Origin: Spirochaetaceae bacterium
GTDB taxonomy: Bacteria > Spirochaetota > Spirochaetia > B11-G9
Reading direction: 5' to 3'
NCBI GenBank assembly: GCA_030638735.1
Contig: DAOWEB010000035.1
Span: 1-35,865 of the forward strand
DNA length: 35,865 nt
Made by a program: the position numbers and the translations under genes. The notes under the pieces are model-generated. The model made no database searches and was not told where the DNA came from. It worked only from the letters and a program-made list of their open reading frames with translations. Below, piece after piece: positions 5,990 through 25,543 of this stretch (within the stretch, counting starts at the first letter, position 1; each line of letters starts with the position of its first letter).

Positions 5990-6235
5990 TTTTTAACATT
6001 TTAACATATTAAAGGCTAAGTCTTTATATAGTATATAATTAGCGATGCGAAAAGCGATGCGAAAACGGTGGGAAAACGGGAATTTACTATGGCCCGTTTT
6101 CGCATATTTAACCAAATTCATGTACATATTAAACAATCATTACTATAAATATAATATATAAAAATGGCTGATATGTTAAAACCAATACCCTGAAAAATCG
6201 CTTTTAACATGGTTTTCGCATCGCTTTTCGCATGA
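5990..6235. other. Putative replication origin with convergent ATGCGAAAA iterons and a 22-bp inverted repeat
   Basis: atgcgaaaagcgatgcgaaaac (6045-6066) is the exact reverse complement of 6212-6233. An extra copy lies at 6097-6105, TTAACAT repeats occur at 5993, 6001, 6173(-) and 6204, and the centre is AT-rich. It sits at the strand switch upstream of the primase-helicase. Confidence 0.7.
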
Positions 6236-9793: not shown

Positions 9794-9795
9794 AG

Positions 9796-9833
9796 TTGAC
9801 ATATGTATAGATATAATATACAGTAATAGACAA
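9796..9833 (+). promoter_or_regulatory. Operator-containing promoter, copy 1
   Basis: TTGACA-17-TACAGT-AATAGACAA, containing TGTATA-N17-TAGACA. Confidence 0.75.
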
Positions 9834-9855
9834 ATAAAGAGTAAAGAAGGGAATT

Positions 9856-10632
9856 ATGAAGGCGTATAAAGTATTTAATCCAGATTGGACATGTAGAAGT
9901 TTTCATTACAAAGTAGGTGAAACTTATTCTATAAAAGAAGATCCTCAGTTATGTAGTTTGGGGTTTCATGCCTGTAAAAAAGCTGTAGATTGTTTTGATT
10001 ATTATAAATTTGATCCTAAAAATAAAGTTGCTGAGGTTGAATTATTAGGCAAAATTGAGGGTCTTGACGATGATAAACAGGTAACCAATAAAATCAAAAT
10101 AATTAGAGAAATTCCATGGGGTGAATTATTGGAATTAGTAAACAGCGGCAAAGATAATACTGGTAAAAAGAACAGCGGAGACCGGAACAGCGGATACCTG
10201 AACAGCGGATACCGGAACAGCGGAGACCGGAACAGCGGAGACCGGAACAGCGGAGACCGGAACAGCGGAGACCTGAACAGCGGATACCTGAACAGCGGAG
10301 ACCTGAACAGCGGATACCGGAACAGCGGATACCTGAATTCAAAATCACCAGCCAAAAGTTATGCTTTTAATAAACTTTTGGAAGAATCAGAATTACAAAA
10401 AATATTACATTCAAGAGGATTTAATATTTTAATGAGATTCAGACTTGTTAAATATAGAGTCAGAACTAAAACTGGTAAGTTTGGGGATTATAGGTATATC
10501 TCTTATAAAAAATCATGGAAATATTTATGGTCTACTCTTTTAATTCAGGAAAGAATTGCTGTATCAGAAATTCCTCATTTTGATAAAAATGTATTTTTTG
10601 AAATAACAGGAATAAAAGTTATTGTAAAATGA
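9856..10632 (+). CDS. DUF7666-like protein with NSGxx pentapeptide repeats
   Basis: N-terminal MKAYKVFNPDWTCR...YKVGETY...LCSLGFHAC domain, NSG(D/Y)(R/L) repeats, and C-terminal FDKNVFFEITGI typical of this phage family. Confidence 0.85.
   Translation: MKAYKVFNPDWTCRSFHYKVGETYSIKEDPQLCSLGFHACKKAVDCFDYYKFDPKNKVAEVELLGKIEGLDDDKQVTNKIKIIREIPWGELLELVNSGKDNTGKKNSGDRNSGYLNSGYRNSGDRNSGDRNSGDRNSGDLNSGYLNSGDLNSGYRNSGYLNSKSPAKSYAFNKLLEESELQKILHSRGFNILMRFRLVKYRVRTKTGKFGDYRYISYKKSWKYLWSTLLIQERIAVSEIPHFDKNVFFEITGIKVIVK
10171..10335 (+). repeat. 11 x 15-bp tandem repeat AACAGCGGA(G/T)ACC(G/T)G
   Basis: Read directly. Units encode DR, YL, YR, DR, DR, DR, DL, YL, DL, YR, YL after NSG. Confidence 0.95.
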
Positions 10633-14215: not shown

Positions 14216-14217
14216 TA

Positions 14218-14290
14218 TTGCGGGAACGGGACTCGAACCCGTGACATCATGGTTATGAGCCATGTGTTCTGCCAACTGAACTACCCCACA
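14218..14290 (-). tRNA. tRNA with CAT anticodon (probably elongator tRNA-Met); CCA not encoded
   Basis: Full cloverleaf: TGTGGGG TA GTTC AGTTGGCA GAAC A CATGG CT CAT AA CCATG ATGTC ACGGG TTCGAGT CCCGT TCCCGCA A. Confidence 0.92.
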
Positions 14291-14295
14291 AAAGT

Positions 14296-18301: not shown

Positions 18302-18325
18302 GAGTAAAATATATACAAAATTGTG

Positions 18326-18363
18326 TTGACATATGTCTATTACTATTATACAGTAATAGACAA
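18326..18363 (+). promoter_or_regulatory. Operator-containing promoter, copy 2 (perfect 11-bp inverted repeat)
   Basis: TTGACA-17-TACAGT, with TGTCTATTACT-N7-AGTAATAGACA at 18334-18362. Confidence 0.8.
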
Positions 18364-20295: not shown

Positions 20296-20333
20296 TTGAC
20301 AATTGTATAGATATGTTATAATATGATAGACAA
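20296..20333 (+). promoter_or_regulatory. Operator-containing promoter, copy 3
   Basis: TTGACA-17-TAATAT-GATAGACAA, containing TGTATA-N17-TAGACA. Confidence 0.75.
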
Positions 20334-20355
20334 TAATAACTATATGGAGGGTCTT

Positions 20356-20538
20356 ATGACTGTAATAGAATTAGCCGTTGATAGTGGTAGATCAGATATG
20401 ACTATCAGAAGGTGGATTAGGGCGGAAAGGATACCATTTAAAAGAATAGGTTTACGGGAGATTTTCGTTGAACCTGCAGACTGGGAAAAGTTCTGTTCTG
20501 ATAATAATATCAAGAGGAAGGGGGGGAGAATAAAATGA
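20356..20538 (+). CDS. Excisionase-like HTH (HTH_17) DNA-binding protein
   Basis: MTVIELAVDSGRSDMTIRRWIRAERIPFKRIG; GGAGG RBS before ATG 20356. Confidence 0.8.
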   Translation: MTVIELAVDSGRSDMTIRRWIRAERIPFKRIGLREIFVEPADWEKFCSDNNIKRKGGRIK

Positions 20539-21731
20539 ATGACTGGCGGTATATGAAGGATCGAGATTTTAAGGAAGGACGGAACTATCTCGGAGCCAGT
20601 GATGCTCCAACAATTGCGGGAATAAATCCATATCAAACCCCACTTGAATTATGGGAAATATTCACAGGTAGAGAAAAAGGTTTTACCGGTAATGAACTTA
20701 CCAAATGGGGACATATTCAAGAAATCAATATTCTGGCTGAATATGTACAGAAAATAACCGGATCAAGTGAACAAAGAAATGATTTCATTACTTCCCGAGT
20801 CTGGGGAGAAGAAAAGTTTAATAAGTTCCATTCATGGACAGAGGCAGTTTATCCAGAAAATAACCGGATATTGTCCCATGCTGATCTTTTAGACTTATCC
20901 GGAGAGATTCCCGTAATAATTCAGGCTAAGAATTCCGGGGAATTTGCAGCTGCTACCCGTAAAAAAGATGTAAATAAAGGTTATGACCGGGAAGATATGA
21001 CCAGCAATGGTATTCCTTTATCTGTTTACTTCCAGGAACAAATTGAGTTATTGACTTATGGGCTCCCCAGGGCATGGGTAGCGGTTCTTATTGGTGGTAA
21101 TTCTTGGAAACTGTATGGACCAATTGAATATAATAAAAAAACAGTTGAAAAGCTTCTTGCTTTATATATGAGATTCCTCTGGCATGTTGATAAGGATATC
21201 GCTCCAACTCCTGAGACCTGGAGCGATGTTGTAAAATTATTTCCTAATTTCAAGAAGAATACAAAAGCGGTTGTATCTGATGAGGCGGAAATTGAATGCC
21301 GTCAAATGCTTGAAGAACACGGGAAAATAGGTCTGAAGATTAAGGAACTTGAAGGCCAGAAAGATAATATTAAAAATGCCCTGGGATTATTTATCGGCGG
21401 GAATAATTATCTTGAGACCCCGGACGGACGGAACCTTGCTTCTGCTTCTGAGATTAAAGGACGGGAAAGTATATCTGTATCATCACTCAAAAAGTTCCCG
21501 GAACTCTATAAAACTGTGACAGAGGTGGGACTTATAACCACAAGCGATAGTTATAGACAACTTTATATTAAAGGCACGCCAGCGGGTAATATTGTTACTT
21601 ATACCCTTCTTACTACTGATGATGGAGAGAAATGGAAAAAATCCCGTAAAAAATATACTGGAGCTGAAAAGAAAGAGGCATACGCTTTATTAAAGAGCCT
21701 TAAAATTGATTGTAAATGGGAGAAAGTATAA
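20535..21731 (+). CDS. YqaJ/lambda-exonuclease family viral recombinase nuclease
   Basis: RNYLGASDAPTIAGINPYQTPLELW...WGHIQE...SHADLL...IIQAKN...YFQEQIEL. Confidence 0.88.
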   Translation: MNDWRYMKDRDFKEGRNYLGASDAPTIAGINPYQTPLELWEIFTGREKGFTGNELTKWGHIQEINILAEYVQKITGSSEQRNDFITSRVWGEEKFNKFHSWTEAVYPENNRILSHADLLDLSGEIPVIIQAKNSGEFAAATRKKDVNKGYDREDMTSNGIPLSVYFQEQIELLTYGLPRAWVAVLIGGNSWKLYGPIEYNKKTVEKLLALYMRFLWHVDKDIAPTPETWSDVVKLFPNFKKNTKAVVSDEAEIECRQMLEEHGKIGLKIKELEGQKDNIKNALGLFIGGNNYLETPDGRNLASASEIKGRESISVSSLKKFPELYKTVTEVGLITTSDSYRQLYIKGTPAGNIVTYTLLTTDDGEKWKKSRKKYTGAEKKEAYALLKSLKIDCKWEKV

Positions 21732-22089: not shown

Positions 22090-22127
22090 TTGATTATTGT
22101 ATACAAATGATATACAATAATAGACAA
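22090..22127 (+). promoter_or_regulatory. Operator-containing promoter, copy 4
   Basis: TTGATT-17-TACAAT-AATAGACAAATAAAGAGT, containing TGTATA-N17-TAGACA. Confidence 0.7.
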
Positions 22128-22147
22128 ATAAAGAGTGAGGAGAATGT

Positions 22148-23467: not shown

Positions 23468-23495
23468 AAAAATGCCCCTGCTATTAACAGGGGCA
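23468..23495 (-). terminator. Rho-independent terminator at the end of the late operon and sRNA
   Basis: On the minus strand, TGCCCCTG-TTAATAG-CAGGGGCA followed by TTTTT. Confidence 0.8.
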
Positions 23496-23541
23496 AGTAA
23501 ATAAAGGAAGGAGAACCTTATGAAAAAGACTGGCGGTCTTT
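23468..23541 (-). ncRNA. Candidate small RNA with 5' hairpin, anti-RBS core and terminator
   Basis: Promoter TTTACA-17-TATACT (23575-23547), 5' hairpin AAAGAC-CGCCA-GUCUUU, core UUCAUAAGGUUCUCCUUCCUUUAUU, and terminator UGCCCCUG...CAGGGGCA-UUUUU. Confidence 0.55.
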
Positions 23542-23590
23542 AAATCAGTATACTTTATATTATACCAATTGTAAACTGTTCAATAATAAA

Positions 23591-25543
23591 TTATACATCA
23601 AACCATCCAACAACATCATCAGTAATCGGACTAAGATGCAAAGTAAGAATAAAGGTTGCATCTGTAAGAACTCCAGCAATATCAAATGTATAAATATCAA
23701 GAGTCGTAGCTGGAAGAGTCCCTCTAATAAATGTAAATAGAATAGGATTTGCAGAAATATTATCCGCAAAGGCAGAATACCCATATGATATACTTGAAAT
23801 TCCATGATCAAGTTGATAATGTCCGGTTCCTATTTTAGCTATTGTCCATCCTTTCATAGGTATAGGGACACTGAATACTCCAGACCCTGTAATCCTCACT
23901 GGTATAGAAAGATTATCTGTATTAAACCAAGTTTCAGTAGCATTGATTTCTATGATATTTCCTGTTGCCTGGCTAAAGAAAACATTAGAACTAAGTTTAA
24001 CCCCAAAAGTATCATCTAAGGATACAGCGTAATCTCCACCTCTAACCGTATTCCCTATTATTACACAATTGTCGCTGCGGACAAGAGATATAGCACCTTC
24101 TCCAGCTACTGTGCTTTGAGGTCTAAAATCATTACCAATTATTTTTGTATAAGGCATATCGATTAAATAAACTAAAAACCCTTGTGTTGAATCACCTGTT
24201 ACTAAAGATTGATTATTAGATATAATACATGTATTTTGAGGAGTCGCCACATCTCCTTTAATTAGTATTATATATTGTCCTGTTTCTATGTGATTAAACT
24301 TATTATTAGCTATTGTTAATTTACCATTATTTGTACCAAAATTAGCAAATAATGCCGCCATAGATGCACTTTTATTCGCATTCAATTCCATTACAATATT
24401 ATTTGTAAAGATAGAATTTGCACCATGATCAAATCTGATAGCCTGGGGTATTCTAAAGAATTGATTATTAGTTATTATACTGTACTCTGATTCTTCAGAC
24501 ATAAGAATTCCGCACTGAAAAACAGATGTATTATCAAATGGAAAATCTCGGAATATACAACCATCTATTAAAGCACCTTCCTGTTCTGTCCCACCTGTCA
24601 GGTCTTGTACAAATATTCCAAAGGAAGCATATTTCTCAAATGTACAATTTATAACTCTAGGAAAAGCACAATCTCTTATATCTATCCCGTCTCTTCTGTT
24701 TGCTCCGTCATATATGATTGAATCATCAGAAGTACCTATAAATTTAATATTTTGAATAGTAACCCTTGAACAGCCAGCTCCTATTCTTATAGCATGGTCA
24801 ATATCATCAACTTTTGTCTGTATGATTCCACCTTGTATAATCACACTTTCTTTATTAGTAATTAAAACTTCTGCTAAAACAAATGAATTATCAGATTCAA
24901 ATACAAAAGTCTGGCCAGTGTCTAATAAATTAATACCGATCTGAACTGCAGCCGAATCATCAGTAATACCGTCTCCTTTAGCACCTGTCCATTTTGCGTT
25001 TATTATTCCGCCATAGCTCCATAACCATCTTCCTGGGTCTGCAGGGTTTATAGCTGTAGGTTTTATTATTGAGGCTCCATTGTCTGCCGCTGTAGATGCA
25101 GTATTCCAATAGCGGATGGGACCTCCTCCACCATCTCCTGCGGTGTAATACCCGGCCACTGATATCTGGACGGCTGGATCTGTTGGAATAATTAGCCTTA
25201 AATCTGCTATTGTGTCAGTTTTTAAAACTACTTGTCCGCTAGGGGCATTGAAATAATCCACTGAGTCTAATAGAGAATATACTGTGGCCCCTCTTTTATC
25301 CTGGACAAGAATAGAATAGTTTGTAGATGTGTAAAGCCTGGAAGCGGCTCCATTATATACAGGGTATCCACCTTTTGTTCTGATATTCGAGGCTGGAACT
25401 GTAAGACTTGGATCCCAATAAGCCTGTAGTGGGTTTGATATTGGGTTAAGACCAGCTACACCTATAAAGATATATCCATCTTCAAGTGGATCGCCGTCTA
25501 CATCTGTAAAAACTGGAAATGGATTCTGTACTAAATTTGGCAT
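23591..25543 (-). CDS. Tailspike: P22-like head-binding domain plus right-handed beta-helix
   Basis: PFPVFTDVDGDPLEDGYIFIG..NP..NP head-binding motif, GYYTAGDGGGG, GAKGDGITDDSAAVQ pectate_lyase_3 lead-in, and Asn-ladder repeats. Confidence 0.88.
   Translation of the reverse strand: MPNLVQNPFPVFTDVDGDPLEDGYIFIGVAGLNPISNPLQAYWDPSLTVPASNIRTKGGYPVYNGAASRLYTSTNYSILVQDKRGATVYSLLDSVDYFNAPSGQVVLKTDTIADLRLIIPTDPAVQISVAGYYTAGDGGGGPIRYWNTASTAADNGASIIKPTAINPADPGRWLWSYGGIINAKWTGAKGDGITDDSAAVQIGINLLDTGQTFVFESDNSFVLAEVLITNKESVIIQGGIIQTKVDDIDHAIRIGAGCSRVTIQNIKFIGTSDDSIIYDGANRRDGIDIRDCAFPRVINCTFEKYASFGIFVQDLTGGTEQEGALIDGCIFRDFPFDNTSVFQCGILMSEESEYSIITNNQFFRIPQAIRFDHGANSIFTNNIVMELNANKSASMAALFANFGTNNGKLTIANNKFNHIETGQYIILIKGDVATPQNTCIISNNQSLVTGDSTQGFLVYLIDMPYTKIIGNDFRPQSTVAGEGAISLVRSDNCVIIGNTVRGGDYAVSLDDTFGVKLSSNVFFSQATGNIIEINATETWFNTDNLSIPVRITGSGVFSVPIPMKGWTIAKIGTGHYQLDHGISSISYGYSAFADNISANPILFTFIRGTLPATTLDIYTFDIAGVLTDATFILTLHLSPITDDVVGWFDV

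Follow-up and report, generated by a model that had tools for sequence, protein, structure and literature searches.

A phage genome carries, between its early and late operons, what its sequence identifies as a predicted cis-antisense RNA of the SymR/RNA-OUT type whose sense gene, encoding a lipoprotein, has been deleted in this phage. We propose, as a reading with about an even chance of being right, that this orphaned antisense RNA persists as a likely Hfq-independent trans repressor of the phage recE/YqaJ exonuclease gene. Observed directly are the remnant of the lipoprotein gene, the conserved geometry of its promoter and terminator, and the computed pairing with recE.

The stretch of DNA analyzed (the window, 35,865 nucleotides) is a complete circular phage genome with a 141-bp terminal overlap. 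Its portal, scaffold, coat, head-closure, DNA-transfer, and tailspike genes are P22-like, and the 36 ORFs scanned in the window included no integrase. The host is probably a spirochaete, because the genome bin that contains the phage contig holds three FlaA genes and because the phage carries a DUF261 gene, a family that we take to be associated with Borrelia; this assignment is inferred from the binning of a contig that is not integrated, and binning is not proof. The RNA element sits where a plus-strand early operon and the minus-strand tailspike gene (ending at 23591) converge. The early operon consists of an HTH gene, recE/YqaJ (20535-21731), two small ORFs, and a Gp3-like gene (PF18897; 22326-23462, plus strand), the left neighbor of the element and our synteny anchor. 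On the other side, the tailspike gene (23591-25543, minus strand) is the last of the late operon, and its 3' untranslated region would hold the whole RNA.

The predicted antisense RNA, of about 74 nt, occupies 23468-23541 on the minus strand, with its 5' end placed from the promoter. This promoter consists of a -35 box, TTTACA (23570-23575), overlapping plus-strand codons 17 to 19 of a former signal peptide, and a -10 box, TATACT (23547-23552), overlapping codons 10 and 11; the spacer is 17 nt and the consensus match 10/12. A second possible promoter, a perfect extended -10 element (TGGTATAAT) that had previously been missed, lies within the spacer (23559-23567, minus strand) and is absent from the two related loci, L006 and L016, described below. 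Downstream, the minus strand encodes a 5' hairpin with a 6-bp stem and a CGCCA loop (23525-23541), a mostly unpaired linker carrying anti-AUG and anti-Shine-Dalgarno sequences (23496-23524), and an intrinsic terminator (23468-23495) with its stem at 23495-23473 and a U-tract running to 23468. That terminator is also the first terminator-like site past the tailspike gene in this phage. An earlier note, made from the sequence alone, had described the promoter, 5' hairpin, linker, and terminator, together with a plus-strand ribosome-binding site (RBS), an ATG at 23520, and a 7-codon ORF (MKKTGGL); all of these are present where it had placed them.

Folding of the 79-nt strand gives -22.9 kcal/mol (z of -4.0; none of 200 shuffles as good), an energy that comes mostly from the terminator. 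The promoter by itself is at chance level, with 18 sites against 17.8 expected in 4 kb and 29 sites scoring at least 10/12 in the window; it rises above chance because its position is fixed in relatives. The best Rfam match was suhB/MmgR (RF00519), at 34.6 bits (E value of 5e-5), short of the gathering score of 41, and the L006 and L016 counterparts do not match RF00519. The suhB/MmgR RNA shares the layout of hairpin, anti-Shine-Dalgarno linker, and terminator but differs in origin, and this common layout is a generic shape.

The short plus-strand ORF proved to be a broken lipoprotein gene, a point that the earlier note had overlooked. Its remnant (23503-23579, plus strand) comprises the RBS, the ATG, and a signal peptide up to Cys20; read through the stop, MKKTGGL*ISILYIIPIVNC is a 20-codon lipoprotein signal peptide, with 15 of its 20 residues identical to those of the family member P0125 and 14 of 20 identical to those of P0122 and P0123. 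The stop falls at codon 8 (23541-23543), there is a proline in the hydrophobic h-region, and the rest of the gene past about codon 20 is absent; what is left stops only a few bases past the -35 box. Protein constraint on the remnant is therefore gone (stop, proline), while the promoter, hairpin, and terminator are intact. The sequence thus identifies the plus-strand RBS and ATG as the remains of a deleted lipoprotein gene and no arbitrary mimic of an initiation region, and the anti-Shine-Dalgarno and anti-AUG sequences of the RNA are, for that reason, simply the complement of that gene's start. A remnant of a deleted gene together with an unconserved hairpin and promoter had been named beforehand as findings that would speak against a small RNA; the remnant is what we find, and the promoter is kept in relatives. 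The ancestral arrangement is also preserved in P0320, a family protein whose miscalled N-terminal extension retains the order of Gp3-like gene end, terminator, and RBS directly before an intact gene. This extension is compatible with 17 of 18 nt of the Gp3-like gene end in the window and with 14 of 15 and 10 of 12 nt of the two terminator arms.

We fetched relatives of the Gp3-like gene and scanned 137 loci for this architecture. The scan returned 10 rows: the window twice, L006, L016, L030, L071, L086, and three Lactococcus phage loci. In L006 (2448-3143) and L016 (764-1444), the ATG opens intact lipoprotein genes of 231 and 226 amino acids, respectively, which occupy the same genomic position as the remnant, before the convergent gene. 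The two lipoproteins are homologous, and that of L016 matches the family profile at 2e-7. In all three DNA copies (window, L006, and L016), the minus-strand -35 box begins exactly at ATG+55 and is followed by a 17-nt spacer; the promoters score 10/12, 9/12, and 11/12, respectively, with the -10 box at the same place in L006 (TACAAT) and L016 (TATAAT). All three copies also carry a terminator hairpin with a minus-strand U-tract upstream of the RBS, and the predicted RNAs measure 74, 71, and 75 nt, respectively. In L006, two pairs of the 5' hairpin are changed on both sides (three sequences compared); the L016 counterpart lacks this hairpin. These observations of conservation rest on three DNA copies.

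It is because the intact genes of L006 and L016 keep the ATG+55 promoter and the terminator upstream of the RBS that we assign the element to the cis-antisense RNAs. A promoter lies within the 5' coding region of the sense gene and faces it, as a consensus match only, and predicted units of 71 to 75 nt run over the RBS and start codon to a terminator at three loci. An intact sense gene lies opposite in L006 and L016, with only the 20-codon remnant in the window. For the earlier proposal of a small RNA gene that masks initiation regions, the layout and the conserved promoter and terminator thus hold up; the origin and the target given for it do not.

Signal-peptide codons could produce promoter-like sequence as a by-product, and we compared the family with lipoprotein candidates of the host. 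Residues compatible with the -10 box occur in 18 of 18 family signal peptides versus 14 of 85 host candidates, and residues compatible with both boxes occur in 16 of 18 versus 0 of 85, although the family counts overstate the difference because the proteins are related and not independent. (Eighteen family proteins with a signal peptide were counted; P0138 was dropped as truncated.) One highly improbable alternative is that the remnant and recE share a sense-strand signal, such as a protein-bound translational operator, and that the promoter boxes are by-products of Ile, Val, and Asn codons. In keeping with such a signal, the two sites share one orientation, as direct repeats, and signal-peptide DNA is often antisense-promoter-like, with a match of at least 9/12 somewhere in the signal peptide in 17 of the 85 host candidates. 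However, none of these 85 has an in-register antisense promoter of at least 9/12, and the residue before the Cys is Asn or Tyr in 16 of 18 family members versus Ser, Gly, or Ala in 83 of 85 host candidates. Also against a sense-strand signal, the L016 promoter stays at ATG+55 even though its Cys is at residue 33, and all three terminators have their U-tract on the minus strand.

A further orphan unit was found in L030 (1020-1124), a distant Gp3-like phage, at the late/early junction: a 5-codon ORF with TTGACA-17-TACTAT at ATG+56 and a minus-strand terminator. A possible small lipoprotein ORF lies just upstream of it (about 880 to 1019). A look-alike in L086 was set aside, as it has no lipoprotein remnant and a different offset. 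We also observed, between the integrase and lysin genes of Lactococcus P335-type phages (L117:1455-1570, also L109 and L129; L192), a look-alike unit with an A-tract, a hairpin, an RBS, an 11-codon ORF, and minus-strand TTTACA-17-TATAAT. It matches 72 phage records, its ATG+55 spacing is imposed by the search pattern, and it has no Rfam match except to a nearby tRNA; it is possibly an unrelated orphan antisense RNA.

Other searches returned no further copy of the cassette. No RNA sequencing run was listed as containing the phage, and three DNA runs contained no variant of it with an intact gene; the one DNA run with the phage may be the source of the window. An exact 18-mer search of viral contigs gave 2 matches, both ordinary gene starts; lipoprotein-alignment scans of viral and genome contigs gave no locus; and alignment of the Gp3-like protein gave none in 400 genomes of the bin's class. 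Degenerate pattern scans yielded 35, 4, and 46 loci, none of them of the lipoprotein family, and four loci of recE relatives contained no family cassette. Annotated phages gave no match to the lipoprotein, and the DNA matches among them were short and attributable to chance.

The lipoprotein family comprises 19 close members and 146 distant representatives, of 225 to 258 amino acids. Among distant members the promoter signature is mostly absent (32 and 25 of 83), which makes the cassette clade specific. Phages of P22-like and of baseplate type both carry the family, which indicates that the early module containing this cassette moves between morphotypes. No Pfam family was found for the four lipoproteins searched. 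An AlphaFold model had a pLDDT of 61; Foldseek gave no match at an E value of 0.001 or below, Atlas matches reached at most 0.83, and the best VIA Z score was 3.8. These results are no evidence of a new fold.

The strongest computed trans partner of the RNA is the recE start, 3 kb away. The predicted trans target (20518-20550, plus strand) comprises the Shine-Dalgarno sequence, the start codon, and codons 2 to 6 of recE/YqaJ; this start call is supported by the fact that most recE homologs begin at the equivalent Met. Our target scan used the 46 nt before the terminator against 53 phage starts and 4,841 host starts. The recE duplex has an energy of -44.9 kcal/mol (net binding, -37.9) and a predicted 29 bp, of which 14 lie over the Shine-Dalgarno sequence, 5 over the AUG, and 10 over codons 3 to 6; the next-best phage start reached -25.4 and the best host start -34.7. 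Ten bases of the 5' hairpin are the exact complement of recE codons 3 to 6, and the standing of recE as an outlier is visible only when this hairpin is included, a scan with the linker alone having missed it. The recE Shine-Dalgarno sequence is predicted to be unpaired and open. With full-length RNA and longer context, the values are -30.6 for recE and -17.1 for the scaffold start. Specific, imperfect pairing above background with a distant mRNA start, as expected of a trans-acting sRNA, is therefore present, as a computed result only.

The earlier note had aimed the RNA, through its anti-Shine-Dalgarno/anti-AUG linker, at the scaffold mRNA or at host MKK-type exported proteins, and had missed the far stronger recE match. 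The scaffold start does share the same 10-nt Shine-Dalgarno block and ATGA at an identical 8-nt spacing; the linker alone ranks it third of the 53 phage starts (-22.2), net binding of the full RNA to the scaffold leader is -17.1, and the top host matches of the linker include many signal-peptide genes. The scaffold duplex is nevertheless an ordinary match (-25.4; net binding, -10.9) that 117 of 4,841 host starts equal, and no host start stands out or approaches recE, the best being the -34.7 noted above. MKK genes are enriched among the host matches because the RNA is itself the complement of an MKK gene. We consider silencing of these targets very improbable.

Four null tests put the recE match at a p of about 0.002 to 0.03, for a match found post hoc in one genome. 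None of 400 host-derived and none of 53 phage-derived mock antisense RNAs reached the recE energy or ratio on phage starts; a Gumbel fit gave a p × 53 of 0.025; none of 1,902 mocks bound the recE start as well (best mock, -40.8); and synonymous versions of recE codons 2 to 6 that pair equally well make up 2.6% of the codon-usage weight. The recE start is G-rich and sticky, being the top partner of two of the five best phage mocks. A 7-mer common to the RNA locus and recE occurs at only these two sites in the phage. We rejected a reading of it as a Chi-like repeat, as the phage has two copies and it is not enriched in the bin.

The pairing does not extend across the family. Window recE pairs weakly with the L006 RNA (-22.1) and the L016 RNA (-24.9); the recE starts of these two loci are off-contig, and no relative in the close clade offered both DNA regions. 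The Trp-Arg pair at recE codons 4 and 5 occurs in 7 of 35 recE homologs, and P0122 (LRR, intact lipoprotein) and P0287 (a recE product with Phe-Thr in place of Trp-Arg), which are probably from the same contig but are linked only by an equal length of 9389, could not form the 10-bp helix. For the L030 orphan RNA, the best duplex among 11 starts is with its own recE, a weak one (-22.9), and by net binding another start ranks above recE. The shared 7-mer is already possible in relatives that have an intact gene with AGG at codons 4 to 6, and on this ground recE pairing may predate the loss of the lipoprotein gene, which would make the RNA a dual-target one, as is sRNA162.

The same AGG codons also suit an unlikely though far from negligible alternative, in which the antisense RNA lost its job with the gene, the terminator was kept for the late operon, and the recE match reflects chance or ancestry. 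A terminator would be needed after the tailspike gene in any case, as L006 and L016 have a separate one between the tail and lipoprotein genes that is gone in the window. The gene loss may be recent, given that 15 of 20 remnant residues still match P0125, and the recE match comes from the one genome. Against mere survival of a remnant stand the four null tests and the place where the remnant stops, just past the -35 box, with the protein damaged and the RNA features intact. The locus would, if this alternative were true, be an ordinary pseudogene remnant with a reused terminator.

A very improbable third use of the RNA is as a weapon against co-infecting relatives of the phage, whose intact lipoprotein gene (possibly encoding an exclusion factor) it would silence. 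The sequencing run that contains this phage, and that may be the source of the window, also has a contig with an intact family member, at higher depth than the phage, and the full-length duplex with the L006 gene start reaches -38.5. Without the terminator arms, however, the L006 and L016 starts give only -29.2 and -27.9, values within the host range.

Returning to the preferred reading, repression of recE in trans, the following course would fit the predicted pairing. Host polymerase would make the RNA from the sigma70-type promoter inside the old signal-peptide codons. The open anti-Shine-Dalgarno linker would nucleate on the accessible, purine-rich recE Shine-Dalgarno sequence (14 bp), and pairing would then spread across the AUG (5 bp) and unfold the 5' hairpin, which would pair with codons 3 to 6 (10 bp). 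The RNA would then mask the recE initiation region and block ribosome loading without Hfq, limiting an exonuclease that could do harm outside the replication phase. The deletion also took away the terminator that lies between tail gene and lipoprotein gene in relatives, so late transcripts would carry this anti-recE sequence at their 3' ends and could silence recE in the later phase of infection. The perfect cis site in the remnant forms a duplex of -80.2 with the RNA, and we found no plus-strand terminator between the recE promoter and the remnant; early mRNA may therefore carry this site, which could outcompete recE, and early transcripts that extend over the remnant could sequester the RNA and so create a threshold. 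The full scenario, in which a cis-antisense RNA becomes a trans sRNA as its gene is deleted down to the promoter, fusion to the late operon switches recombination off, and the dead start acts as a sponge, is a tentative one to which we give somewhat less than an even chance.

Independence from Hfq agrees with the setting. No Hfq was found in 30 relatives of the bin, and the bin itself has, at the extreme edge of a contig (L005:2-127), only the first 42 residues of an Hfq, likely a foreign fragment at a chimeric contig end; its sequence looks betaproteobacterial. A host encoding Hfq, as an Hfq-dependent sRNA would call for, is thus not indicated, with the host itself assigned by inference. The relatives of the bin are in line with Borrelia, from which the cited text describes Hfq as absent (PMC11607428).

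The predicted RNA has several parallels. SymR, transcribed from a promoter within the symE ORF, represses translation in cis and does so independently of both Hfq and RNase III (PMC1891008). Like Escherichia coli SymR, the predicted RNA is a small cis-antisense RNA with its promoter within the target ORF; unlike in the SymR/symE pair, the target is a phage lipoprotein without evidence of toxicity, and this phage, having lost the cis gene, offers its best partner in trans. The small toxic peptide of type I toxin-antitoxin systems has no apparent counterpart, the sense gene belonging to a lipoprotein family of 225 to 258 amino acids. RNA-OUT, an RNA of about 70 nt from the mobile element IS10, covers the 5' end of its target and blocks the RBS (PMC7968456), and P22 sar, of 68/69 nt, acts against ant (PMC12197685). 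The predicted RNA shares with both the length of about 70 nt, the mobile-element origin, the 5'-end overlap, and RBS blocking, but has no Rfam match to them, concerns other target genes, and is orphaned with a second target. P22 sas, of 105 nt, switches translation between sieB products (PMC12197685); it too is a phage antisense RNA acting in cis on an accessory gene, whereas our lipoprotein is matched by nothing in Pfam, the PDB, or annotated phages.

Among sRNAs that arose from protein genes are OxyS, IsrK, and EcsR2, and OxyS is a sense 3' mRNA fragment (PMC8825220). In these cases, as in ours, a regulatory RNA outlives its parent gene. In contrast to OxyS, what was left behind here is an antisense unit already complete with promoter and terminator, and, unlike for the OxyS group, ancestral and derived states are both seen in related phages. 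sRNA162 of Methanosarcina has dual cis and trans targets (PMC3510493), a single RNA with both kinds of target as proposed here. Antisense RNAs over gene starts, sRNAs from decayed genes (PMC8825220), and dual cis/trans RNAs are thus already known. A literature search lying mostly outside subscription journals returned nothing on the lipoprotein family, on antisense RNA against phage recE, or on recE pairing by an orphaned antisense RNA of a phage.

How new sRNAs are incorporated is called unresolved in one source (PMC8825220). The locus suggests a direct route, as promoter, terminator, and target all come with an antisense RNA that lies across a gene start, and the anti-Shine-Dalgarno/anti-AUG face of such an RNA would be preadapted to other gene starts. 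The ancestral state with an intact gene and the derived, orphan state both exist among related phages, and the locus would, if our reading is true, be a snapshot of a small regulatory RNA gaining a new target. It also defines an undescribed cassette of antisense RNA and lipoprotein whose signal peptide is dual-coded, and the phages that carry it come from a group apparently without Hfq.

Several other features of the phage genome deserve mention. A repeated early promoter/leader motif, running from a TTGACA-type box to AATAGACAA, occurs at 9795-9842, 18325-18363, 20296-20337, and 22090-22136 of the window and at 734-790 of L006; three copies are 85 to 90% identical, and the motif is likely the site of a shared regulator. 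A perfect 22-bp inverted repeat (6045-6066 and 6212-6233), intergenic and upstream of the primase operon, is a candidate replication origin or packaging signal. Tandem 18-bp repeats (10170-10337) lie within the ORF at 9856-10632, and the phage encodes a tRNA-Met(CAT) on the minus strand (14217-14291) that is 77% like a tRNA in the bin.
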